A stretch of DNA of 64,000 nucleotides, taken from contig JAFXQI010000086.1 in the NCBI GenBank assembly GCA_017527155.1, positions 5,151-69,150 of the forward strand, given 5' to 3'. This stretch comes from Kiritimatiellia bacterium. GTDB taxonomy: Bacteria; Verrucomicrobiota; Kiritimatiellia; CAIQIC01; Lenti-01. Below, in pieces: positions 18,873 through 29,687 of the stretch. The notes under the pieces are model-generated. The model was not told the DNA's origin. It did not search any database and saw only the letters and a program-made list of their open reading frames with translations. Both the position numbers and the translations under genes were made by a program. Each line of letters begins with the position of its first letter. The first letter of the stretch is position 1.

Positions 18873-19369
18873 TGCGCCCGCTGTCATACGGCGGGCGCCC
18901 CCCGGTTATCCCTTGTATGACACCCCGTGCCCCCCGTCCGCGTCCGGACGCCCGGCGCGGCGAACAAGGAGGACGAAAGACCGAGACAGGACATAGGCTT
19001 TCCGCGATGACGCGGGCGGCAGGAGAGGTGCGCGACGAAACGGTGTGACGCCACGGCACGCGACATTTTCGCGCTTGCCTAGTCCCTCCGTTTCTGCGAA
19101 GGTCGGTTCTGCCAAAGCGCTCCGGGGCGCAAACCCCGCCGCGTCGAGGCGGACAATCGATTTGCATACCCGCAAATCCAATCGTTCCTGAGAAATCTGG
19201 TCCATTTCTTCCCCGAACATTGGTTGCGAGGTGCGTCCATGCGCACCTCTCTGCTGATTTTCGGAAAGGGCCCGACCAGAGCCTCTCAGGAGAACCACAG
19301 AGAGGCTTTTGTTGACCCGGAAAAGTCTCTCCTGGAGTTGTAGCAACCAGGGTCGGAGACAAAACTATT

Positions 19370-19639
19370 ATGGCAACCATCACGGTCAATATCCTCGACG
19401 CCACGGGAAACAAACGGCAGGAAGTCGAACTGCCCGACAATGCCCCTGTCAATCGCGTCATTGCCGTCCTCCTGGACAAGATGAATCTTCCAAAGAACGG
19501 TCCGGATGGGCAACCCTTGGCCTACAAGTTCCACCACAAACGGACCGGCAAGCAATTGCAGGACACGCAAACTCTGGCCTCCATCGGTGCCCAAGACGGC
19601 GACATCATCCGACTCCAGCCCGAAATCACGGCCGGCTGA
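19370..19639 (+). CDS. Ubiquitin-like protein (YukD/EsaB-like beta-grasp) ending in free C-terminal Gly
   Basis: 89 aa; ITVNILD beta-1, TGKQLQDTQTLASIGAQDGDIIRL (cf. ubiquitin GKQLEDGRTLSDY...ESTLHL), ends EITAG; GGAG RBS. Confidence 0.9.
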   Translation: MATITVNILDATGNKRQEVELPDNAPVNRVIAVLLDKMNLPKNGPDGQPLAYKFHHKRTGKQLQDTQTLASIGAQDGDIIRLQPEITAG

Positions 19640-19650
19640 AAGGACCTGTC

Positions 19651-20868
19651 ATGGAGACTGGCAAGATCAAAGTCTCTCTTGAAGAAACAACCCCCACTCT
19701 CCGGGAAGAGGACCGCTTCCAGAGATTCAGCCTGATTGGATGGTGGAATCAGTCCCGCCTCCGCAACGCCAAGGTGCTCGTCATCGGTGCCGGGGCGCTG
19801 GGCAATGAAATCGTGAAAAATCTTTCATTGCTCGGGTTCGGAAATCTTTTCATTGCCGATTTGGACAATATCGAGAATTCCAATTTGTCGCGTTCGGTCC
19901 TGTACAGGGAACGCGACAATGGAACATCGAAAGCCCGGACGGCGGCCCGGTCTGCGAAGGAGCTGTTCCCCGGCATGAAAGCCCAGGCGTTCCACGGCAA
20001 CGTCCTTTACGATCTGGGTCTTGGCGTCTACCGCTGGGCGGATGTCGTCATCGCGGGACTGGACAACCGCGAGGCGCGCCTGTCCATCAACCGGAATTGC
20101 TGGAAACTCGGAAAACCATGGATTGATGGAGCCATTGAGCAAATCAACGGCATCGCGCGGGTATTCGCCCCGGACGGCCCCTGCTATGAATGCACCATGT
20201 CCGAAACGGACTGGCAACTCCTCAACCGCAGGCGGTCCTGCAATCTCCTTACGAAAGACGAGATGCAGGAAGGCAAGGTCCCGACCACGCCGACCATCAG
20301 CTCCATCATCGCCGGCGTGCAGTGCCAGGAAGCCGTCAAGCTGTTGCATGGCATGGAAACGATTGCGGGAAAAGGTTTCGTGTTCAACGGCATCTCCTGC
20401 GATTCCTATCTGGTCGAATACCAACGCAACGACGATTGCTATTCGCACGACACGGCGGACCGCATCGTCCCGCTCCCGGCCAAAGCGGCGGACACCCGGG
20501 TGGCCGATTTGCTCGCCCGCGCCCGGAACGACCTCGGTCCCGACACGGTCCTCGAACTCGGGAGGGACATCCTTACCGCGCTTCGCTGCCCATTCTGCGG
20601 GAAAACGGAAAGCATTTACCAATCCTTGGGGCAAGTCCGCAATTCGGCCGCGACCTGCCCGGAATGCGGCCGCCGCCGCGAGGCCATGACGGCGTTCACC
20701 ATCGACGGCACACAAGATTTCCTCGACCAGACTTTTGCCGGAATTGGCATCCCTCCCTTCGACATCGTGTGGGCCCGCAACGGCGGCATGCTCGTCGGAT
20801 ACGAATTTGCGGCCGATGCCCGGGAGGTTCTCGGCGAAGTGGCGTCGGCCGGGGAAGGGAATGGTTGA
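19651..20868 (+). CDS. E1-like activating enzyme (ThiF/MoeB/UBA family) with C-terminal zinc ribbons
   Basis: VIGAGALG, D..E.SNLSR, GLDNREAR, PCYECT, candidate catalytic Cys in RRSCN, C-terminal CPFC/CPEC. Confidence 0.93.
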   Translation: METGKIKVSLEETTPTLREEDRFQRFSLIGWWNQSRLRNAKVLVIGAGALGNEIVKNLSLLGFGNLFIADLDNIENSNLSRSVLYRERDNGTSKARTAARSAKELFPGMKAQAFHGNVLYDLGLGVYRWADVVIAGLDNREARLSINRNCWKLGKPWIDGAIEQINGIARVFAPDGPCYECTMSETDWQLLNRRRSCNLLTKDEMQEGKVPTTPTISSIIAGVQCQEAVKLLHGMETIAGKGFVFNGISCDSYLVEYQRNDDCYSHDTADRIVPLPAKAADTRVADLLARARNDLGPDTVLELGRDILTALRCPFCGKTESIYQSLGQVRNSAATCPECGRRREAMTAFTIDGTQDFLDQTFAGIGIPPFDIVWARNGGMLVGYEFAADAREVLGEVASAGEGNG

Positions 20869-20870
20869 CC

Positions 20871-21914
20871 ATGGCCGACTTTACCTCCATCCGCAGGGAA
20901 GAGTGCCGGGCGACCCCCCTGCCTCCCGGATGCAGTCTCGGCGCATCGCGGACGGTCATTCTCCAGTCCGTGCTGAACGAAATCAAGGAACACGGCCGCG
21001 CGAGCATGCACGCGGAAGTCTGCGGCGTGCTCGTCGGTTCGCTGTGCTGGGACGGGGCGGCATATCTCCTTGTCGACGGCCGTATCGAAGGGAAGCACGC
21101 CACCCACCAGAGCGGCAGCGTGACGTTCACGGCGGAGACTTGGGATTCCATCCATGAAGAACTCGACGCGAAGCATCCCGGCCGCGTCATCGTCGGCTGG
21201 TACCACACGCATCCCGGCTTCGGCATCTTCCTGTCGAACATGGATGCGTTCATCCACGAGAATTTCTTTTCCTTCCCCTGGCAACCGGCCTATGTCTTCG
21301 ACCCTCAGGCTGAAACGGACGGCTTCTTCTTCCGCGAGGGGAACAATCTTGTCCAGGAAGAAGTCGCGGTTGTCCCCGACGCCGCGCCGCTTGTCAGAGA
21401 ACCGACGCCCTGCACGGGGGATAGAATCGTTGTCCAGGATGAATCAGGCCGATCCTTCCTGCGCATCGGGCTTGTGGGCGCGACGGTTCTGCTTCTCCTG
21501 CTGGGGACGATATCGGCATCCTCGATTCTTCTGCTGCGTCAATCGCGACAAAGGGAACGATTGGCCGAGGAAAAGGCGGAACGCCTCCAACAGACCATCC
21601 GGAATCAGGCGGAGGAGCTTCGGGAGTTCCAGCGGCAAAGGGAAGCGGAACAAGCAAGCCATTGGCTGGGAAGCGGTTTCGCGCACCACCTGTTCCATTG
21701 GTGGAATTCCGAACGCGACGTTCCCGCACGGCAACGTGCCAACGGCCGGAAAATCCTGGAATTCCGCTTCGGCGAGAGCCCGGTTCCCGGCAAAACCGCT
21801 CCGAATCCGTCCATCGTGGACGAACGGTGGGAATGGGATGCCGCGGAACACATTCCTGTCTCGTCCACAAGGCAACAGGACAAGCCTTCCCCGCCCGGGA
21901 GGGACGACCAATGA
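20871..21914 (+). CDS. JAB/MPN+ (JAMM) metallo-isopeptidase with transmembrane anchor and coiled coil
   Basis: EVCGVLVG...VGWYHTHPGFGIFLSNMD (intact HxHx7SxxD, Rpn11-like); hydrophobic IGLVGATVLLLLLGTISASSILLL. Confidence 0.93.
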   Translation: MADFTSIRREECRATPLPPGCSLGASRTVILQSVLNEIKEHGRASMHAEVCGVLVGSLCWDGAAYLLVDGRIEGKHATHQSGSVTFTAETWDSIHEELDAKHPGRVIVGWYHTHPGFGIFLSNMDAFIHENFFSFPWQPAYVFDPQAETDGFFFREGNNLVQEEVAVVPDAAPLVREPTPCTGDRIVVQDESGRSFLRIGLVGATVLLLLLGTISASSILLLRQSRQRERLAEEKAERLQQTIRNQAEELREFQRQREAEQASHWLGSGFAHHLFHWWNSERDVPARQRANGRKILEFRFGESPVPGKTAPNPSIVDERWEWDAAEHIPVSSTRQQDKPSPPGRDDQ

Positions 21915-21950
21915 CGGCAATAATGGCAAACACATGAAAGGCATACCCAC

Positions 21951-22565
21951 ATGAGCGATTCGAAAATCACGGTTTCCCTCGAGGAAATCGATCAAGCGAC
22001 CCCTGTTCCCGGCCCCATGCCGCCGCCTTTTGTCTCCCCGGATGGCCCGGAGGAGGCTCCGAAACCTCCACCCGGCACCCGTGCCCCGTGGATAATCATC
22101 GCGGTTGCAGTTGCCATCGTGGTCTTGGGCGTGGTCTGCTTTTCGTTGTTTTCTGCAGCCAGCACGGCGGATGCATATCTGAAACGATATGTCCAATCCG
22201 TGAATGCCGAGTTGAGCGATCCATCGTCCCGGCTCAGAAAGTCCGTCGACCAGCGGATAGGGGCCGCCCATCTTACCGTGACCGTGAAAGACGCACGGGT
22301 CGTCGGAAGCGAGGTCACCACGTTCGACGGAACCAATGCCGCAGGCAAGGGCGGTGAAAACATCGACAAGATGGCATTGGTGATTCGCTTCGACTGGGAT
22401 GGTCTGACGACCGGCGGATACAGCGACATGCTCTGGGTCATCGACGGGAACCGAAAGCACCTCGTCAAGTCGGAAATCATCGAAACATCGGCATCGATTA
22501 ATCTTGAGGATCCGGACTTCTGGGGGGCCGTCGGAGATATTCTCCTTGCCCTGTGGGGTGCATGA
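21951..22565 (+). CDS. Single-pass membrane hypothetical protein of the ubiquitin operon
   Basis: KITVSLEE motif, Pro-rich linker, TM (WIIIAVAVAIVVLGVVCFSLF), extracytoplasmic domain. Confidence 0.75.
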   Translation: MSDSKITVSLEEIDQATPVPGPMPPPFVSPDGPEEAPKPPPGTRAPWIIIAVAVAIVVLGVVCFSLFSAASTADAYLKRYVQSVNAELSDPSSRLRKSVDQRIGAAHLTVTVKDARVVGSEVTTFDGTNAAGKGGENIDKMALVIRFDWDGLTTGGYSDMLWVIDGNRKHLVKSEIIETSASINLEDPDFWGAVGDILLALWGA

Positions 22566-22591
22566 CAACGAACCAATTACGGAGAAAAACA

Positions 22592-23830
22592 ATGGAATCT
22601 GAAAAAATCAGCGTCTCGTTGGATGAAGTAAACAGTGCCAGGGTCGATGCGGAAATCCGTCGACAGGACATCGCGGCCCGGATGGCCGCGCACCAAGAAG
22701 AGATCGAGGCGAACACCCCATCGGCGAAACGCTTCGGCGGCGGCGTGTTTCGCAAGGCCATCGTATACATGGCCGTGTTTGGATTCTTCGCTTCACTGCT
22801 GGCCTGGGGCATGGGGGAGCTTGTGCAATACCGCTCGGACCGACACCCCTGGAAGCAGTATCAAGAAGCATTCAACGCCTTTCTGGCATTCAAACCCCAG
22901 GGGCGTGTCTGGGAATTTCAGGAATTCGTGACCGCGCTCCGGATGCATGAAAGCGGACAATACCGGGACAATCCGTTTTTCAGTTCCTCCTTCTGGGACA
23001 AACCGGAATGGCAGCGGCGCAAGGCCTTGGATGCGGCCAAATCTGAATACCGCACGTTGGATCGCGTTTGGTTCATGCTGCTCGGCCTGTTCATCGGAAT
23101 CGGCCTGTCGTGTGCCGAACCGGTGGTCGTCAGGAACGGGAAATCCGCCCTCTTCCGGGGATTGCTCGGTGCCGTGCTGGGACTACTGGGCGGGTTTGTG
23201 TGTTCCCTGTTCATCAACCAGGTGTACAACTTCCTGCAGGGGGACACGGAGGGCTTCACGTTGCAACAGGTGTTTGCCCGGGGCGTGGGGTGGAGCATTC
23301 TCGGGATATTCCTGGCCATCGCCCCCGGCATCGCGATGCGGAACATGAAGAAATTCCTTCTCGGGCTTGCGGGCGGGGCCATCGGCGGTCTCGCCGGGGG
23401 ATTTCTCTTCGATCCGATTTGCCAACTGACGGGGAGCGATGTCCCCGCCCGTTTCGTCAACATCGTCGGCCTCGGCGTCGGTGCGGCCGTGGCCACGGCC
23501 TTGCTGGAAGAAGCCGCGAAACAAGGCTGGCTCAAGGTCGCCACCGGGGTCATTACCGGCAAGCAATTCATCCTGTACCGCAATCCGACGGTCATCGGCA
23601 GTTCGCCGAAAACGGAAATCTACCTCTTCAAGGATCCCACGGTGGCCCCCAAGCATGCCGCCATCAACGGACTTGGAGGGGAATACGTCCTCACGGCCCT
23701 CAATGGCGCGACCGTATTGCTAAACGGAGCTCCCGTAAGGCAACAGCGCCTCAAGAACGGGGACCAGATCCGGGTCGGAAACACGGTGTTCCTGTTCGGT
23801 TCGAAAACGGTGAAACATTCCCAGGGATGA
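22592..23830 (+). CDS. Multi-pass membrane protein with C-terminal FHA domain
   Basis: GGAG RBS; several Gly-rich TM helices; VIGS...KDPTVAPKHA...LNG...LKNGDQIRVG. Confidence 0.85.
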   Translation: MESEKISVSLDEVNSARVDAEIRRQDIAARMAAHQEEIEANTPSAKRFGGGVFRKAIVYMAVFGFFASLLAWGMGELVQYRSDRHPWKQYQEAFNAFLAFKPQGRVWEFQEFVTALRMHESGQYRDNPFFSSSFWDKPEWQRRKALDAAKSEYRTLDRVWFMLLGLFIGIGLSCAEPVVVRNGKSALFRGLLGAVLGLLGGFVCSLFINQVYNFLQGDTEGFTLQQVFARGVGWSILGIFLAIAPGIAMRNMKKFLLGLAGGAIGGLAGGFLFDPICQLTGSDVPARFVNIVGLGVGAAVATALLEEAAKQGWLKVATGVITGKQFILYRNPTVIGSSPKTEIYLFKDPTVAPKHAAINGLGGEYVLTALNGATVLLNGAPVRQQRLKNGDQIRVGNTVFLFGSKTVKHSQG

Positions 23831-23834
23831 GACC

Positions 23835-24638
23835 ATGAAACTCCATTGTCCCCAATGCAATTCGATTCTCGAAGTACCTCCGGAGGCGGACGGCATCGTC
23901 GAATGCCCTTCGTGCGGCAGTCCTTTGGACATGCCGGCGATCCGGACGGCGAACTGCCCGGTGTGTTGCTCGCCCCTGGCGGAAGAGGATACCGTAAAGA
24001 TTTGCCCCAATTGCAAGACTCCCCACCACATGGAATGCTGGGAAGAAAACCGCGGATGTTCGACGTACGGTTGCGCATCGGCTTGGCACGAAGAAACCCA
24101 CACGGGGGAATCATCGGAGGGGGCAGGCATGGTGGCCTGTCCGGCTTGCGGAGCGATGCATCCCGCCACGGACCTGGTCTGCAGTTCCTGCGGCAAGTTG
24201 CTCGGCGAGAATCTGCCGGGCGACTCGACAGGGGCGCGCCTCCAGGAAACCATCGGGAAACTCGGCAGCGCCGCCCAAATGCATCTCCTGCCGAGGCTGG
24301 CACGGAATTTCAGGCTTTTGGGCAAGGACATCGCTTCGGCATTTCGCCTCTGGTGGGGGGAGTTTTCGAGATATGGGGTATTCCGTGGCAAGACCACTCG
24401 GCCTTCGCTCACGGCGTTCATGGGAATCAATTGCGCGTTCAGTATTCTGTTCTCGTGTTGCAACGCCACGCCCCTTGTCTGGATTGAATGGATTGTCCTG
24501 GCCTGTCCAGTGCTCGCCTCCTTTGCACGACGCCTGCGGGACACGGAAATATCGGCATGGATGATTTTCGCCGTCCCTCTCCTCCCCTTTCTACTGTTGG
24601 TTCCAAGCGTCGATTCAACGGAAGGTGTCCAGCCATGA
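23835..24638 (+). CDS. Prokaryotic RING-finger (E3-like) protein: zinc ribbon + RING + zinc ribbon + DUF805-like membrane domain
   Basis: CPVC...CPNCKTPHHMECWEENRGCSTYGC (Prok-RING_1-type pattern); flanking CxxC ribbons; FRGKTTR...RRLRD (DUF805-like). Confidence 0.85.
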   Translation: MKLHCPQCNSILEVPPEADGIVECPSCGSPLDMPAIRTANCPVCCSPLAEEDTVKICPNCKTPHHMECWEENRGCSTYGCASAWHEETHTGESSEGAGMVACPACGAMHPATDLVCSSCGKLLGENLPGDSTGARLQETIGKLGSAAQMHLLPRLARNFRLLGKDIASAFRLWWGEFSRYGVFRGKTTRPSLTAFMGINCAFSILFSCCNATPLVWIEWIVLACPVLASFARRLRDTEISAWMIFAVPLLPFLLLVPSVDSTEGVQP

Positions 24639-25678
24639 TTGAGTTCAACTGCCCGAATTGCAACGAAAAATTCGAAGTCGACGACGAGCTCGCCGGCGCA
24701 ATCGTCGAATGTTCCGCATGCGACTTCCAATTCACCGTTCCCGGGAGGGGCGAATCCGATTCTCCTTCTTGTCCCGAAAGCACGCCTGAACAACCTCCCG
24801 ACGACGCGGCGGCCGGGCTGATGGAACATGGAACCCTCGTGTTTTCCTGCCCGAATTGCCATGACCGTCTTGAATGCAGCGCCGAACTGGTGGGAGTCCG
24901 TGTCGCTTGCGCCCGTTGCGATTACCATTTCATCGTGCCGCCACCGAATGCGAACGACAGTGCGCCCGATGCCTTGCCCGACGAGATACCTCCTCCAGAG
25001 GCCCCTGCGGATTCTTCCCCGGACATGGAGACCTCCCCCCCGCCCCCCCTCCCTGCCGCGGAAGAAAGAGCCGCACCTTCGGGAAAACTGGATTTGTCCG
25101 CGGAGTTCCCGGAGTGCGCCGATCCGCCGACCAATTCCGGGGAGGCGAGGTCTGCTCCGATCGATAGGACCGCACAGGCTCCCGCCGTCCCGATGCCAAC
25201 GGGGAGGCTTTCGCCCCGCCAACGGCGGCTGGTGTCGGATTTCCGGATGATGAGGGAACGGTTCACCGCCTTCCCCTTGATTCATCTGGAACATGTCCAG
25301 GGCAACCCACCGGAAATGTACGTCGTCTCCTACCGCATACGCGGCATCGAGCGCCTTCGCGGCGACCAAGTCGTATACCGTGATTACCACGAAGTCGAAA
25401 TCAAGCTCCCCGGAACCTATCCCCGGACGCCGCCGACGTGCCGGATGCTCACCCCGGTCTTCCACCCGAACATCGAGCCGGCCATCATCTGCATCGGCGA
25501 CCACTGGACCGCTTCCGAACGGCTCTGCGACCTGGTGGTCAGGATTGGAGAGATGATTGCCTACCAATCGCACAACATCAAGAGTCCTCTCGACGGCGAA
25601 GCCGCCATGTGGACGGACCTCCACGGCGACATGCTCCCCATCGACAGCCGGGATTTGACCCCGCCGGAAGACGGGTGA
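24635..25678 (+). CDS. E2 ubiquitin-conjugating (UBC) enzyme with two N-terminal zinc ribbons
   Basis: RRLVSDF, YPRTPP, FHPNI, catalytic Cys in IICIGDHW; ATGA coupling to the RING gene. Confidence 0.92.
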   Translation: MIEFNCPNCNEKFEVDDELAGAIVECSACDFQFTVPGRGESDSPSCPESTPEQPPDDAAAGLMEHGTLVFSCPNCHDRLECSAELVGVRVACARCDYHFIVPPPNANDSAPDALPDEIPPPEAPADSSPDMETSPPPPLPAAEERAAPSGKLDLSAEFPECADPPTNSGEARSAPIDRTAQAPAVPMPTGRLSPRQRRLVSDFRMMRERFTAFPLIHLEHVQGNPPEMYVVSYRIRGIERLRGDQVVYRDYHEVEIKLPGTYPRTPPTCRMLTPVFHPNIEPAIICIGDHWTASERLCDLVVRIGEMIAYQSHNIKSPLDGEAAMWTDLHGDMLPIDSRDLTPPEDG

Positions 25679-25723: not shown

Positions 25724-28021
25724 GTGAACGACCAAGAAAAACCCATCCGCATCACTCCGATCGGAAAACCCGCCGCCCCTGCCGTGGATAGCAGAAAATT
25801 GAGGGTGATTGCACGGCCGGCATCAACTCCGGAAAACCGATTGCAAGGCCAACCGGAACCGGTCGGCGGACAAAGCGGGGAGAGCGCGTCGACCGGCCAC
25901 CCCGGGATGGAACCCATCGGGATGACGCCGCATGGCGTCGGGCCGGAGAAGGGGAAATCCGGCATTCGGACATGGGTGTGGATTCTGCTGGTGGTGCTGC
26001 TTGTTGCCGCCGGGGGCGTGGGATGGTGGTTCATGGCCGGGAAAGACGGCGGAGACGATGGGGCGGAGGATACCGCCGGAAGCCCCCCGGCCCCCTCGCC
26101 CATGTATCCAACCGATCCCCCGCAATCTCAGGAAGGAGGCAGGCAACGGAATGCGGTTGCCGTGAATCCCGTCCTGCAAGAGCGCTCGTTGGTCACCTAC
26201 TCCTTGGAGTTCGGGGGCCGCGTACCTCCTGAATGCTGTTCATTCACCGTGACGAACAGCGGCATCAAAAGCACTTTGCCGATTGATACGCTTGGGGGCA
26301 ATCCAGTGTACTTCCTGAGCGATATGGATGTCTTGTGGAAATACCGCGTTTCCGGTTCCGGAAACGAATATATCTTTTCAACCATGGTGGGCAAGTATTC
26401 CAAAGCCGACACCCCCATCTATTTCTCCCTGCTCAGGGATGCGGTGGCACGCAAGACGCGGGGCACGACCCTTGCAAAAAAAACGGATGTCCTCTGCGAA
26501 AATGCCTGGCTCGGAAGCCGCCGTTATCCTGCACCCGCCGTCATGGCATACACCAATCATTCCACGCGGTTCCTTTATCTCAACGACACCGGAAACCCCT
26601 CCGTCCTGGAATGGGGGGAAACCATGAAATACTGGTTCTGGTGCCATGAAGGAGCGGAAGCGTTGGCCGAGTACGCGGGGAGTCTGCGGAAATTGAAACA
26701 GACATTGATCGACTACTCCAACATCGCCCGCGAGGAAGGATTGCGGCAATACAACAGGGCCATCACCATCGATGATCCCCCCGTGTTCCACATCGGGCAG
26801 CTGGACGAGGGCACGCGGGAGCCAGTCGAGGTCGAATACGAGTTCGTGGTCGAAAACGGAATCTCCATGGCAAAAGAGATCTCGAAATGCGGAAGCGGAA
26901 CCTATTCGAGGCGTTGGACATTGGAAGCATTGGAGGATGAATTGGATTTCTTCTCCCGCTTTGAAACGGCTGAATCCACGGAAAAGGCTTTCGAACCGTT
27001 GTATTGCTATCTGACGCAAATGAAAATCCTCTTCGAGGAGGCTGCCCTGGAGGTGGACCGGGTGGAGAACCGGTTCGAGGGAGGCGGGCAGGGAAACAAC
27101 CCCGGCAAGAAAGATCAACAGTTGACCTTCGCCCCTGTCGGCCCACAAACCACGACATCGCGCGTCAACCTCTCGGCGACGGCGGACAGTGGCGGGAAAG
27201 TGGTGTTTTCGGTGGATTCCGGCCCGGGAAAGATTGATGGCGACACGCTCACATTCACGGGGACCGGGGAAGTCGTGGTCCGTGCCCGGCAGTGGGGCGA
27301 CGAGACATGGCATTCCGCGACGGCTACACAGACCATCGAGGTGAATAGGGATCCCGTCCCCGCGGTCAGTCCCGAAAGGAAAACACAGTCCGACGGTTCC
27401 GGGACAACAAATGCCGCACAGTCCGGGGCCCGACTCCCTGGGGAGAGAACGACTGGGACCCACCGCCCGGCGACCTCCACGCCTCCGCCGGAACTGGCGG
27501 GCATGAAGGCCGCCCTTGAAGCATTGCAAGGTTCGCAGACACCACCCAATCTCGCGAAAGTGGAAAACGAATGGAAGGCTCTCTCCGGAAAATGGAAGTC
27601 CGCCTTGCAGAAGAACGTGATGTGGGCCAGCTGCGCGATATTCCTGCAACATGGCAACACGACGGCGCTGGCAAAGCGCAAGGCATTCTTGGACGCCCAG
27701 GCGCTGGCCAGTGCCGTGTCGGACAAATGCCGCGCCTGCAACGGGACGGGCCACAACAAGGATCGATGCCGCGAATGTTCGGGAACCGGGCGTTGTTCCT
27801 TCTGCCATGGGAGCGGACGTACCCCGGGTCTGAACGGCCGCACGGGGCCTTGTCCGAAATGCAACAGCTCGGGACGCTGTCTCGCTTGCTCGGGTGGCAT
27901 CAAGGAGTCCTCATGCCGGATGTGTTCGGGGTCGGGACGGACATTGTCGGCAACCAAATGCCAGAAAGTCGTGGATGACAACATCGCCCAGGCAATCCGC
28001 ATCTGCCGAGGAGAAGAATAA
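25724..28021 (+). CDS. Membrane-anchored protein with Ig-like module and C-terminal DnaJ-type CxxCxGxG zinc-finger repeats
   Basis: AAGGAG RBS, GTG start; TM WVWILLVVLLVAAGGVGWWFM; beta-rich module QLTFAPVG...TQTIEV; six CxxCxGxG-like repeats. Confidence 0.8.
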   Translation: MNDQEKPIRITPIGKPAAPAVDSRKLRVIARPASTPENRLQGQPEPVGGQSGESASTGHPGMEPIGMTPHGVGPEKGKSGIRTWVWILLVVLLVAAGGVGWWFMAGKDGGDDGAEDTAGSPPAPSPMYPTDPPQSQEGGRQRNAVAVNPVLQERSLVTYSLEFGGRVPPECCSFTVTNSGIKSTLPIDTLGGNPVYFLSDMDVLWKYRVSGSGNEYIFSTMVGKYSKADTPIYFSLLRDAVARKTRGTTLAKKTDVLCENAWLGSRRYPAPAVMAYTNHSTRFLYLNDTGNPSVLEWGETMKYWFWCHEGAEALAEYAGSLRKLKQTLIDYSNIAREEGLRQYNRAITIDDPPVFHIGQLDEGTREPVEVEYEFVVENGISMAKEISKCGSGTYSRRWTLEALEDELDFFSRFETAESTEKAFEPLYCYLTQMKILFEEAALEVDRVENRFEGGGQGNNPGKKDQQLTFAPVGPQTTTSRVNLSATADSGGKVVFSVDSGPGKIDGDTLTFTGTGEVVVRARQWGDETWHSATATQTIEVNRDPVPAVSPERKTQSDGSGTTNAAQSGARLPGERTTGTHRPATSTPPPELAGMKAALEALQGSQTPPNLAKVENEWKALSGKWKSALQKNVMWASCAIFLQHGNTTALAKRKAFLDAQALASAVSDKCRACNGTGHNKDRCRECSGTGRCSFCHGSGRTPGLNGRTGPCPKCNSSGRCLACSGGIKESSCRMCSGSGRTLSATKCQKVVDDNIAQAIRICRGEE

Positions 28022-28187
28022 TCGTCGGCACGGAGGAAGGCAGGGGAGATATCCCCCGAAAGTTGGTGGTGCACACGGCCTTGGGGGGGGCTTCCCCGTA
28101 ACCTTCCCGCTCGGTCCCGAGAAGCAGGAGAAAGGGGGCGCACTTGATGTCAACAAGCCAAAAAACACGGAAACAAGGCGGAACACC

Positions 28188-29687
28188 ATGAAGGTACTTC
28201 ACAGCATCATTATTTGTCTGGCGCTGCTTGCAATGGGCGGGGCTTGCTCAGGAAGAGGGGACGCGGACGGGGGACGGAAACCCGAAGGCGGGGCGGCACC
28301 GGCGGCGGAGGTGCGTCTTCCGCCGGCATGGGTGGTCACCGACATGGATACCGCGGCGCAGGCGGAGGCGGGCGACGTGGATGCCATGGGGTTCGTTGCC
28401 CGGGGATACATGGAGTTGGCGACTTCAGAAAACATCGAGGCAAGCGACGAAGAGCGGCAGGCGATGTTCCGGGAAGCTATGGACTGGGTGACCCGGCGGA
28501 CCAAGATCATTGCCGACCGCGAGGGTGACGTCGAAAGCGTACGCAAGCGGGCGGAGGCGGGGGATGCCGCCGCGCAGCGGAACCTAGGGTACCGGTACAG
28601 TCTGGGCGTCGATGTCGAAAAGGACGAGTCTTTGGCGTTCGAGTGGACGAAAAAGGCCGCCGAACAGGGCGATGCCAAGGCAATGTTCAACTTGGCAAAC
28701 GATTACGCCAAGGGACAGGGCGTCGTGGCGGATGCCGCCGAGGCGCTCGGATGGTACCGCAAGGCAGCCGCGGGCTGGCGGGAGCTGGTTGCGAACGGTG
28801 GCGTTCAGGCCGGGGACTGCCAGGCGCTGGTGATTACCGGCATGGATTTGCTCGGTGAGGAGGGCGTCTCGGGGGTGCGGGCCCCCGAGCTCGGGTTGGA
28901 GTTCCTCGAAATCGCGGCCTTGGCGGGCGATGCGCCGACCCAGGCCGAGTTGGGTCTCCGGTACATGCTGGGGGGCGGAGTTCCGCAGGACATGGCGAAG
29001 GCCGCAGAATGGTGGCGGAAGGCCGCGGACGGAGGCGAGTGCCGCGCCATGCTCTGGCTCGGCACCGCGTACGAGCGCGGCGACGGGGTGGAGAAAGACG
29101 ATTGCAAGGCCAAGGAGTATTGGGAACGGAGCCATGCCGCCGGGTGGCCCGCGGCCACCGAGAAACTCCTTTCGCTCGCGGACGAGTACCGCGAAGCGGC
29201 GGAAGCGGGCGATGCGTCATCGCAGTTCTTCATGGGGGCTGCTCATGAATGCGGGTACGGGACGGAACGGGACGCGGGAGAGGCCGTCGCGTGGTACCGG
29301 AAAGCGGCGGAGCAGGGGCATCCGGGAGCGCAGGCGTTCTTGGGATATGCGCTCCTGGCGGGCGAGGGCACGGAAAAGAACGCGGAGGAAGCGGTCGCGT
29401 GGTTCCGCAAGGCCGCCGAACAGGGGAATCCCGAGGCACAGCAGAACCTCGGCCTGTGCCTGTTCTACGGCGAGGGATGCGAAGAAAACCAGGTGGAAGC
29501 GGCGGAGTGGTACCGCAAGGCGGCCGAGCAAGGGGAGGCGGGCGCCATGTTCAATCTCGGGGCCTGCTACAAGGATGGCACAGGCGTCCCCGAAGACCCC
29601 GCCGAGGCGCTTGCTTGGTTCCGTCGTGCGGCGGCGTTGGGGCATCCCCGCGCGGCCGCGGTCCTGAAGCAAATGGCGTGGGAATAG
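28188..29687 (+). CDS. Sel1-repeat (SLR) lipoprotein
   Basis: Signal with LAMGGAC; many AQxNLG..Y..G.GV..D...A..WY.KAAEQG repeats. Confidence 0.92.
   Translation: MKVLHSIIICLALLAMGGACSGRGDADGGRKPEGGAAPAAEVRLPPAWVVTDMDTAAQAEAGDVDAMGFVARGYMELATSENIEASDEERQAMFREAMDWVTRRTKIIADREGDVESVRKRAEAGDAAAQRNLGYRYSLGVDVEKDESLAFEWTKKAAEQGDAKAMFNLANDYAKGQGVVADAAEALGWYRKAAAGWRELVANGGVQAGDCQALVITGMDLLGEEGVSGVRAPELGLEFLEIAALAGDAPTQAELGLRYMLGGGVPQDMAKAAEWWRKAADGGECRAMLWLGTAYERGDGVEKDDCKAKEYWERSHAAGWPAATEKLLSLADEYREAAEAGDASSQFFMGAAHECGYGTERDAGEAVAWYRKAAEQGHPGAQAFLGYALLAGEGTEKNAEEAVAWFRKAAEQGNPEAQQNLGLCLFYGEGCEENQVEAAEWYRKAAEQGEAGAMFNLGACYKDGTGVPEDPAEALAWFRRAAALGHPRAAAVLKQMAWE

Follow-up and report, generated by a model that had tools for sequence, protein, structure and literature searches.

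We analysed a 64,000-nucleotide window of a Kiritimatiellia bacterium genome (assembly GCA_017527155.1, contig JAFXQI010000086.1, positions 5,151 to 69,150), which contains a ubiquitin-like tagging operon with all genes on the forward (+) strand. The first gene (19370–19639) encodes an 89-residue ubiquitin-like protein (Ubl) ending in PEITAG, with a Pfam match to YukD (1.6e-12) and weaker matches to Rad60-SLD and ubiquitin, and all 58 orthologs listed end the fold with ITAG. It is followed by a 405-residue E1 of the ThiF family (19651–20868; Pfam ThiF 6.2e-49), for which 120 homologs at 62–100% identity were listed, and by a JAB/MPN deubiquitinase-like protein (20871–21914; JAB 1.4e-09, Prok-JAB 2e-07) with a C-terminal membrane helix found by hydropathy. 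Next are P4 (21951–22565), a 204-residue single-pass membrane protein of no Pfam family with only four homologs found among 5.8 billion proteins, and P5 (22592–23830), a 412-residue polytopic membrane protein with a C-terminal FHA-fold domain (Yop-YscD_cpl 1.1e-09, FHA 7.1e-09). The operon continues with a membrane RING protein with N-terminal zinc ribbons (23835–24638; Prok-RING_1 4e-13, Zn_ribbon_3 and DUF805), an E2 of the UBC fold behind two zinc ribbons (24635–25678; UQ_con 9.4e-10, Zn_ribbon_4), and P8 (25724–28021), a 765-residue protein of no Pfam family.

An earlier note had reported that E1, P4 and P5 begin with the same short peptide, and this observation is confirmed. E1 begins METGKIKVSLEE, P4 MSDSKITVSLEE and P5 MESEKISVSLDE. 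The shared motif, K-I-x-V-S-L-[DE]-E, occupies residues 5–12 of each protein: KIKVSLEE in E1 (19663–19686), KITVSLEE in P4 (21963–21986) and KISVSLDE in P5 (22604–22627), where the feature can be extended to residues 5–14 (KISVSLDEVN, 22604–22633). The three proteins are unrelated by Pfam (ThiF, no family, and FHA). Each pair of motifs shares 17 of 24 bases but only 2–3 of 8 third codon positions, so the likeness is at the protein level, as the note had suggested. We also asked whether the true start codons might lie elsewhere. P4 has no upstream in-frame start, and for E1 the only alternatives are TTG codons at 19309 and 19312, which would read through the whole Ubl gene in another frame. P5 has alternatives at 22553 and 22562; however, in several orthologs the open frame begins one to three codons before the equivalent Met.

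To test whether the motif is restricted to the operon, we searched the six-frame translation of the 3,227,041-base genome with the pattern K[IVL].[VI]SL[DE][DE], which gave three hits, all of them these N-termini; a looser pattern added one unrelated internal hit. We then built a 10-column matrix only from 49 P5 orthologs of other genomes. This matrix ranked the P5, P4 and E1 N-termini first to third in the whole genome, at 28.0, 21.5 and 20.4 bits, whereas the next hit, at 18.7 bits, lies elsewhere in the genome. The RING protein and the E2 carry no copy (best scores −5.2 and −0.6 bits). The JAB protein also does not reach any matrix threshold (best score 0.7 bits), but it has a possible degenerate fourth copy, RIVVQDES (21423–21446), just before its membrane helix, at the place where KIVISSEDTQ lies in the JABs of the loci L040 and L042, KIVITPKDTK in that of L041 and KIRIAVHD in that of L031. 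This is a lead only. The note's "looser variant" at the start of P8 does not fit the motif: the P8 N-terminus (KPIRIT, 25739–25756) scores −6.4 bits and has no acidic half. It is nevertheless conserved, as its six homologs keep [PT]-I-[RQ]-[IL], and in two of the seven proteins, counting the one in the window, this stretch is the first strand of a C4 zinc ribbon.

The motif is not a quirk of this genome. Across 80 related PVC loci, the P5-derived matrix found 80 sites at ≥16 bits, against none in reversed sequences, and 89 against 2 at ≥14 bits. All 89 lie on the operon strand and 79 of them lie within 8 residues of a start codon. At ≥10 bits, the sites were labelled by BLAST as P5 (53), E1 (15), E2 (8), JAB (3), RING (2) and P4 (1), with 50 unlabelled and none on the Ubl. 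The carriers also include variable membrane proteins, some of them trypsin-like proteases: Pfam searches of 10 carriers gave five membrane-anchored Trypsin_2 proteases, two Prok-RING_1 proteins, one UQ_con protein and two proteins of no family. In five other genomes (24.8 Mb), a back-translated pattern matched 10 times, with seven matches on the operon contigs at known copies, against one match for the reversed control pattern.

The motif is found in both the E1 and P5 families. The P5 matrix reached ≥10 bits in 51 of 120 E1 N-termini, compared to 1 of 1200 control windows elsewhere in those E1s and 0 of 120 shuffled N-termini. The core [ILVMF]x[ILV][STDN] is present in 112 of the 120 E1s, in most of which it lies 12–15 residues before DRFxRF, whereas shuffles gave a mean of 24.2 and a maximum of 35. 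Of the best 150 P5-family representatives, 102 carry the motif at ≥10 bits; in 66 of those it starts at residue 4 or 5, and five have tandem copies. All five P4-family members keep the motif, with K5, I6, S9 and E12 invariant, at 35–43% overall identity. There are, however, exceptions. In Phycisphaerae-type loci only P5 passes the strict matrix and E1 carries a looser form such as PLRITAADT, and in a sub-type with an FHA-RING fusion, E1 has only ..TLHIS.., although a canonical Ubl exists elsewhere in those genomes.

AlphaFold2 leaves the peptide as a free tail in the P5 model, where residues 1–9 are coil and the first block has a pLDDT of 57 compared to a mean of 88.2. In the E1 model the first three blocks have pLDDT values of 52, 49 and 46, with only a two-residue strand at residues 6–7.

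The note had interpreted the peptide either as a Ubl-interacting/docking motif or as a conjugation tag with Lys5 as acceptor, and our results support this interpretation only in part: the comparative evidence fits a docking motif, whereas the Ubl as receptor has only weak in-silico support. We propose that the peptide is a short linear docking motif of this kind of membrane-associated Ubl/E1/E2/RING/JAB operon, of the form x-[IL]-x-[IV]-[ST]-x-[DE]-[DE]-[LIVT]: one β-strand with alternating hydrophobic residues followed by an acidic pair, usually starting at residue 4 or 5 of a flexible cytoplasmic tail. In this genome it would plug E1, P4 and P5 into the same site of one shared partner, and so gather the activating enzyme and the membrane components into one assembly at the inner membrane. 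The partner we favor is the Ubl itself, with the peptide lying against an exposed edge strand or groove of the β-grasp fold, as SUMO-interacting motifs (SIMs) do. Our analysis establishes the motif, its restriction to the operon, its conservation across protein families and phyla, and its undocked or low-confidence state in monomer models, but that it docks, and onto what, is inferred from sequence and modelling alone. We consider a common docking motif to be likely, whereas the Ubl as receptor is possible but rather less than an even bet, and the proposal as a whole is tentative.

The Ubl is the only core component without a motif hit, and it is also the most conserved component, with 83% mean column identity compared to 61% for E1 and 39% for P5. 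Furthermore, when the system is split over two loci the Ubl stays next to P5, as we read in four of five genomes. A complex prediction of the Ubl with P5 residues 1–40 gave only weak support, with a score of 0.41 against 0.00 for the best of three controls; the runs agree in at least 73% of contacts and the partner's pLDDT is at least 63. The mark was reached by 58 of 80 solved complexes and by 2 of 110 mismatched pairs, but at 0.60 or under by only 7 of the 80 and by both mismatches that passed, a grade that is more often wrong than right unless the guess was already likely, and the prediction returned no contacts. No close solved homolog exists from which the model could have remembered a complex. 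E1 and P5 motifs of the same locus are no more alike than those of different loci (269 of 2000 permutations reached the observed similarity), so there is no general co-evolution signal. The one covariation seen, between Ubl column 40 and motif position 5 (z = 5.1), follows clade boundaries and may be phylogenetic. The FHA domain is equally universal, and the E2, the RING or the zinc ribbons are not excluded as receptors.

A less likely possibility is that the motif docks onto the FHA-fold domain of P5, or of the FHA-RING fusion in the sub-type operons, in which case P5 would be the hub that collects E1, P4 and other tagged proteins. An FHA domain is present in every operon form seen, either on P5 or fused to the RING where P5 is not adjacent. 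FHA domains are peptide binders, and the motif has [ST] at position 4 (Ser in 57 and Thr in 37 of 102 P5-family members), followed by acidic residues at +2 and +3. However, in the P5 monomer model AlphaFold2 does not dock the protein's own N-terminal copy onto its FHA domain. Canonical FHA binding needs phosphothreonine, yet Ser is commoner than Thr at the only conserved hydroxyl position, and no kinase gene was seen in the operon. In addition, as read from the sequence, the phosphate-binding Arg and Ser of the consensus (G-R and S-x-x-H) are replaced, as IGSSP and VAPKHAAI, and the best Pfam match is the phospho-independent YscD type.

It is somewhat less likely still that the strands pair with each other, or with another component such as the E2 backside, the RING, the N-terminal zinc ribbons or JAB, so that tagged proteins would zip into one complex without the Ubl or the FHA domain acting as reader. 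Alternating hydrophobic residues would suit edge-to-edge strand pairing, and tandem copies occur. The motif and the zinc ribbons also look interchangeable at N-termini: of nine E2s without an upstream zinc ribbon four carry the motif, compared to 4 of 41 with one, although these counts come from related loci and are not independent. Similarly, the P5-family members P0242 and P0265 start with a zinc ribbon instead of the motif, and P0206 with RING-like Cys motifs. In contrast, the acidic pair would be expected to repel in a purely homotypic zipper, and E2, RING and JAB each carry the motif in some lineages, which is awkward for a receptor.

The conjugation tag suggested in the note, with Lys5 or the nearby N-terminal amine as acceptor of the Ubl, is not supported as a general feature and appears doubtful. 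All three copies in the window have K5, K is the commonest residue at this position in the P5 family (70 of 102), the motif usually lies close to the N-terminus, and motif-directed modification next to a Ubl-binding peptide occurs for SUMO. However, among the 112 E1 homologs with the core the position is P in 22, V in 18, R in 16, K in only 15, T in 12 and I in 11, and it varies even among E1s 77–86% identical to that of the window. In the P5 family 32 of 102 lack the lysine, and 20 of 102 have no Lys anywhere from −5 to +9. The matrix rewards K at position 0, so counts of K are biased upward. Internal copies exist in E2 linkers and before the JAB membrane helix, and it would be odd for the E1, E2, RING and JAB enzymes all to be dedicated substrates. 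Finally, an absence of shared function, with similar N-terminal strands arising independently or through constraints on translation start regions, is very unlikely: short β-strand-like peptides with acidic residues are common and within-locus covariation is absent, but the genome-wide and locus-wide scans with reversed, shuffled and internal-window controls argue strongly against chance, and the differing third codon positions and internal copies mean that an RNA-level or initiation-context explanation fails.

By Pfam content and gene order, the operon is of the prokaryotic YukD-like Ubl/ThiF E1/UBC E2/Prok-RING_1/JAB/FHA kind reportedly predicted by Burroughs, Iyer and Aravind (Mol Biosyst 2011). 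The shared peptide is the new item; our literature searches found no description of it, although we cannot exclude that this earlier work mentions a conserved N-terminal segment. The Caldiarchaeum-type E1/E2/RING/Rpn11 operon, reconstituted in vitro (PMC5654768), is likewise a compact prokaryotic operon with a complete ubiquitin-style cascade, but its components are soluble whereas the system here is membrane-anchored, and no shared docking peptide is known to us there. The YukD/EsaB Ubl of type VIIb secretion, which belongs to the Pfam family that best matches the Ubl, is clasped by the FHA domains, DUF domain and a β-hairpin of YukB (bioRxiv 10.1101/2025.01.24.634720), so that an FHA-domain membrane protein and a short β element of a partner contact the Ubl at the membrane. 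This precedent could fit either the Ubl or, because FHA domains are part of the clasp, the FHA reading. However, YukD is not conjugated and has no E1, E2 or JAB, and the YukB hairpin is internal and specific to one protein, not a portable tag on many proteins.

SIMs are also short hydrophobic strands with flanking acidic residues on disordered termini, are carried by enzymes of the pathway itself as well as by clients, and are thought to tether the Ubl. A SIM at the extreme C-terminus of the SUMO E1 subunit SAE2 occupies SUMO's groove in some crystal structures (PMC12687455), and tandem copies occur in multi-SIM ligases (PMC11354881). Here, in contrast, the hydrophobics alternate (φ-x-φ-[ST]-φ) instead of forming a run of three or four, and the motif is N-terminal, bacterial and belongs to a YukD-like Ubl, to which its binding is only inferred. 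Atg8-interacting motifs (AIM/LIR, [WFY]-x-x-[LIV] with acidic neighbours) are similarly shared by core autophagy enzymes and cargo receptors, and in most P5 orthologs the second half of the motif reads W-[DE]-[DE]-[LIV], with W at position 5 in 45 of 102. However, the copies in the window have Leu and not an aromatic residue, E1 copies often lack both anchor residues, and the conserved upstream strand φ-x-φ-[ST] is not part of the AIM definition.

Between 19370 and 28021, the + strand of the window carries a co-directional gene row comprising a YukD/ubiquitin-like Ubl of 89 aa (19370-19639), a ThiF-family E1 (19651-20868), a JAB peptidase with a C-terminal membrane helix (20871-21914), a 204-aa single-pass membrane protein with no Pfam family, which we call P4 (21951-22565), a polytopic membrane protein that ends in an FHA-fold domain, P5 (22592-23830), a Prok-RING_1 membrane protein with zinc ribbons (23835-24638), a UBC-fold E2 behind two zinc ribbons (24635-25678), and a 765-aa protein with no family, P8 (25724-28021). 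Pfam matches to YukD/ubiquitin, ThiF, UQ_con, Prok-RING_1 and JAB, all on one strand between 19370 and 25678, place this row in the membrane-associated prokaryotic Ubl/E1/E2/RING/JAB/FHA operon type, which is traced to Burroughs, Iyer and Aravind (2011). The Ubl has a C-terminus of a form suited to activation, although activation itself is inferred from sequence alone. In all 58 Ubl orthologs listed, from 58 loci, the fold ends ...PEITAG; in many loci, including the window, the protein stops at AG, and in many others a tail of 1 to about 120 residues follows. In one of these, locus L051 (539-1174), the tail repeats the pseudo-terminus (..E[VI]TAGGAAC..) several times.

E1, P4 and P5 begin METGKIKVSLEE, MSDSKITVSLEE and MESEKISVSLDE, respectively, with the eight-residue cores at 19663-19686, 21963-21986 and 22604-22627. 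Each pair of cores shares 17 of 24 bases but only 2-3 of 8 third codon positions; the likeness is therefore kept at the protein level and is not a DNA repeat, and we rejected RNA-level and gene-conversion explanations on the same grounds. The start codons are sound. P4 has no other in-frame start upstream, and the only alternatives for E1 are two TTG codons that would run through the whole Ubl gene. P5 has two alternatives 10-13 codons upstream, however in several orthologs the open frame starts one to three codons before the equivalent Met. The regular expression K[IVL].[VI]SL[DE][DE] hits three times in all six frames of the 3.23-Mb genome, and these are the three sites. The central observation of the earlier note, that three unrelated proteins of the operon share one N-terminal peptide, is confirmed.

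We next asked whether the peptide is a property of this genome or of the operon family. A search with P5 of 60 genomes related from genus to class level (G001-G060) returned only FHA-domain hits (query residues about 290-412) and no ortholog, so the operon is patchy; because operons 60-74% identical in E1 occur in other phyla, this suggests horizontal spread of the whole operon. We then moved to collection-wide searches. The 120 E1 homologs listed (62-100% identity) all carry a related N-terminal segment, and an E1 profile retrieved 80 loci (L031-L110) from Victivallales, Kiritimatiellia, Verrucomicrobiota and many Planctomycetota, the best 80 of 265 relatives. Most of these have the order Ubl-E1-JAB-(variable)-P5-RING-E2. 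In the 49 P5 orthologs whose alignment reaches the N-terminus, the protein starts M-x3-K-[IL]-x-[IV]-[ST]-[WLF]-[DE]-[DE]-[LIV]-N-[ST]-x-x-V-[DE]. We built a 10-column log-odds matrix from these 49 sequences only, none of which is from the window's genome, and used it to scan that genome in six frames. The top three scores are P5 (28.0 bits), P4 (21.5) and E1 (20.4), and the fourth, at 18.7 bits, lies elsewhere in the genome.

To determine which proteins carry the motif, we scanned every stop-to-stop frame of at least 50 aa in the 80 loci, on both strands. The matrix gives 80 sites at >=16 bits against 0 in reversed sequences, and 89 against 2 at >=14 bits. All 89 sites lie on the operon strand, and 79 lie within eight residues of a start codon. 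Sixty-one of the 80 loci have at least one carrier, 13 have two or more, and 7 have three or more. By BLAST label, the sites at >=10 bits are P5 53, unlabelled 50, E1 15, E2 8, JAB 3, RING 2, P4 1 and Ubl 0. The unlabelled carriers are mostly single-pass membrane proteins built as motif, Pro-rich or acidic linker, membrane helix and a variable outer domain. Pfam on ten carriers names five as Trypsin_2 proteases, two as Prok-RING_1 proteins and one as a UBC E2 with two tandem copies in place of zinc ribbons, while two have no family. The membrane-anchored Trypsin_2 serine proteases sit inside the operons (L032:12197-13225, L035:7421-8992, L061:4655-5482, L074:5597-6535 and L096:12344-13345) and carry the motif on their cytoplasmic N-terminus, making them candidate effectors or clients of the system.

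The motif is also kept within the protein families. All five members of the small P4 family keep K5, I6, S9 and E12 at 35-43% overall identity. A profile search of 1.84 billion representatives finds 843 P5 relatives at E <= 1e-30, and of the best 150, 102 carry the motif at >=10 bits in the first 60 residues. It starts at residue 4 or 5 in 66 of those, and five have tandem copies, whereas members without it are mostly N-terminally cut records, or start with zinc-ribbon- or RING-like Cys motifs. In five other genomes (24.8 Mb) a back-translated pattern matched ten times, with seven matches on the operon contigs at known copies, and the reversed control matched once. The two outside matches that we read are short junk frames.

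E1 and P5 carry one and the same motif. The P5-derived matrix reaches >=10 bits in 51 of 120 E1 N-termini, compared to 1 of 1200 same-sized windows elsewhere in those E1s and 0 of 120 shuffled N-termini. A looser core, [ILVMF]-x-[ILV]-[STDN], lies mostly 12-15 residues before the DRFxRF start of the adenylation domain in 112 of 120 E1s, while two hundred shuffles gave a mean of 24.2 and a maximum of 35. The common pattern is x-[IL]-x-[IV]-[ST]-x-[DE]-[DE]-[LIVT]. Acidic residues dominate positions 6 and 7 in P5 and position 7 in E1 (E 71, D 33), whereas position 6 of E1 is more mixed (E 40, A 28, D 20). In Phycisphaerae-type operons the E1 copy is looser (PLRITAADT) and only P5 passes the strict matrix.

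These features are those of a short linear docking motif, since the peptide is short, lies on a flexible cytoplasmic end, is portable between unrelated proteins, is sometimes repeated, and is confined to one system. We consider this reading likely. The peptide and its distribution were established here by sequence comparison, whereas docking, the identity of the partner and any binding to it are inferred. AlphaFold2 models P5 at mean pLDDT 88.2 with residues 1-9 as coil (first block pLDDT 57), ahead of a helix at 16-41, and the E1 model has N-terminal blocks at 52/49/46 with only a two-residue strand at 6-7. In P4-type proteins the motif is followed by Pro-rich linkers. The monomer models do not place the peptide on the FHA domain, nor confidently on the E1 body, which argues against docking in cis but says nothing about binding in trans. 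In this view, the motif would bring the soluble E1 and the membrane proteins P4 and P5 of the window to one shared site.

As the reader of the motif we tentatively favour the Ubl, although we would put this at somewhat less than even. The Ubl is the only core component without a motif hit, and it is far more conserved than its partners, with 83% mean column identity against 61% for E1 and 39% for P5, which fits a protein with many fixed contacts. Furthermore, where the system is split over two loci, the Ubl stays beside P5. This occurs with a sub-type operon that reads E1, JAB, FHA-RING fusion, E2, with no adjacent Ubl or P5 (loci L077, L082, L084, L098-L100, L102, L104 and L107; L113-L117). 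In all five such genomes searched a canonical Ubl lies at another locus, and in the four that we read it is directly followed by P5 with a full motif; one of the five (G070: L077, L115) is flagged unpublished. There are also precedents: a YukD-family Ubl is clasped by FHA domains and a beta-hairpin in the type VIIb secretion system (bioRxiv 10.1101/2025.01.24.634720), and a SIM at the end of the SUMO E1 subunit SAE2 fills SUMO's groove in some crystal structures (PMC12687455). Finally, a complex prediction of the Ubl with P5 residues 1-40, each with its own alignment, gave weak support only, with a score of 0.41 (runs 0.41, 0.42, 0.41) against 0.00 for the best of three controls and with no contacts returned. 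The runs agree in at least 73% of contacts and the partner's pLDDT is at least 63, however while the mark was reached by 58 of 80 solved complexes and 2 of 110 mismatched pairs, it was reached at 0.60 or under by only 7 of the 80 and by both mismatches that passed. A PDB profile search with the Ubl found only weak ubiquitin matches and no complex to compare with; no close solved homolog of the Ubl exists from which the model could have remembered a complex.

Other results weigh against this reading or fail to support it. E1 and P5 motifs from one locus are no more alike than those from different loci (269 of 2000 permutations), and we therefore rejected within-locus co-evolution as evidence. 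Mutual information between Ubl and motif columns was highest for pairs that follow clade boundaries. The best, column 40 of the Ubl alignment against P5 motif position 5 (42 loci, z = 5.1 against shuffles), reflects Phe at Ubl residue 40 where the motif has Trp (20 of 27 loci) and Leu where it mostly has Leu, Phe or another residue (Trp in 1 of 12), but the split follows Phycisphaerae against the other clades and we keep it as a lead only. In the sub-type operon E1 has only ..TLHIS.., although a canonical Ubl exists elsewhere in those genomes, and because the Ubl is present these operons do not discriminate between receptors.

The FHA domain is as universal as the Ubl and remains the main rival reader. 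The peptide is, however, not a canonical phosphothreonine ligand. Instead of an invariant Thr, the only conserved hydroxyl position, position 4, is S 57 and T 37 of 102 in the P5 family and T 54 and S 47 in E1, and position 2 is not conserved. By our reading of the sequence, the FHA domain of P5 also lacks the phosphate-binding Arg and Ser, with IGSSP and VAPKHAAI standing in place of the consensus G-R and S-x-x-H, and its best Pfam model is the phospho-independent YscD type (Yop-YscD_cpl). Strand-to-strand zipping, or binding to E2, RING or the zinc ribbons, is not excluded. N-terminal zinc ribbons and the motif look interchangeable at the N-termini of E2 and P5 in loci L031-L110 and in proteins P0206, P0242, P0265, P0128 and P0132. 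Of 9 E2s without an upstream zinc ribbon 4 carry the motif, against 4 of 41 with one, though these counts come from related loci and are not independent, and some P5- and P8-family members start with a zinc ribbon where others have the strand. The two may serve the same docking role. A dedicated acceptor lysine is not supported, as the 'Lys5' position of E1 is P 22, V 18, R 16 and K 15 among the 112 homologs with the core and changes even among E1s 77-86% identical to that of the window, while in the P5 family it is K in 70 of 102, although the matrix favours K, and 20 of 102 have no lysine from -5 to +9. The interpretation in the earlier note, which offered either a Ubl-interacting or docking motif or a conjugation tag with Lys5 as acceptor, is accordingly supported only in part.

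The peptide would work like a SIM, with flanking acidic residues and a location in a segment predicted to be flexible, and phi-x-phi-[ST]-phi is conserved; however the hydrophobics alternate and do not form the [VIL]-x-[VIL]-[VIL] run of SIMs, and binding to the Ubl by beta-augmentation, as in SIMs, has only the weak support of the complex prediction. In many orthologs the second half, W-[DE]-[DE]-[LIV], looks like an Atg8-interacting motif (AIM/LIR), which has an aromatic residue at the first anchor and L/I/V three residues later. The window copies have Leu at the first anchor, W occupies it in 45 of 102 P5-family members, and E1 copies mostly have L, A or T, so that neither definition is fully satisfied. 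While the operon type is known, full-text literature searches, including one for motif letter strings, found no description of the shared peptide, although supplementary files and Burroughs et al. (2011) lay outside these searches and a prior mention cannot be excluded.

In the papers searched, these membrane-bound bacterial ubiquitin-like operons are known from genome comparison, and we found no report of their targets, partners or purpose. A portable peptide shared by E1, E2, RING, JAB, the FHA scaffold and variable membrane proteins offers a concrete handle, as it predicts who belongs to the complex, nominates clients, namely the P4-type proteins and the membrane proteases, and points to a small set of mutations and peptide-binding experiments. 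If the Ubl is the reader, this would be a bacterial counterpart of SIM/AIM-type Ubl recognition, which bears on how the eukaryotic logic of reading ubiquitin-like tags arose. A bolder hypothesis, which we consider unlikely but which is not excluded, is that the peptide is a bacterial Ubl-interacting motif serving as the address label of the whole system, such that any protein beginning with it is brought to the free or enzyme-loaded Ubl, including the enzymes, the FHA scaffold and a changing set of membrane proteins such as the trypsin-like proteases. The variable tagged membrane proteins would then be the long-sought clients or effectors of these unstudied operons, and reading a Ubl through a short strand-plus-acid peptide, as with SIM, AIM or UFIM motifs in eukaryotes, would already exist in bacteria.

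We also examined two further candidate copies in the window. RIVVQDES (21423-21446, JAB residues 185-192) lies directly before the JAB membrane helix, where KIVISSEDTQ sits at the same place in the JABs of loci L040 and L042, KIVITPKDTK in L041 and KIRIAVHD in L031. It may be a decayed fourth copy, but it reaches no matrix threshold. The N-terminus of P8 (KPIRIT), which the earlier note had proposed as a looser variant, is conserved as [PT]-I-[RQ]-[IL] among its 6 homologs, but it scores -6.4 bits and lacks the acidic half, and in two of the seven proteins it is the first strand of a C4 zinc ribbon; we therefore do not count it as a copy. P8 has no BLAST match in the 80 loci. It ends in repeated CxxCxGxG-like cysteine motifs, as in DnaJ-type zinc fingers, and is followed by a protein with 8 Sel1 repeats (28185-29687).
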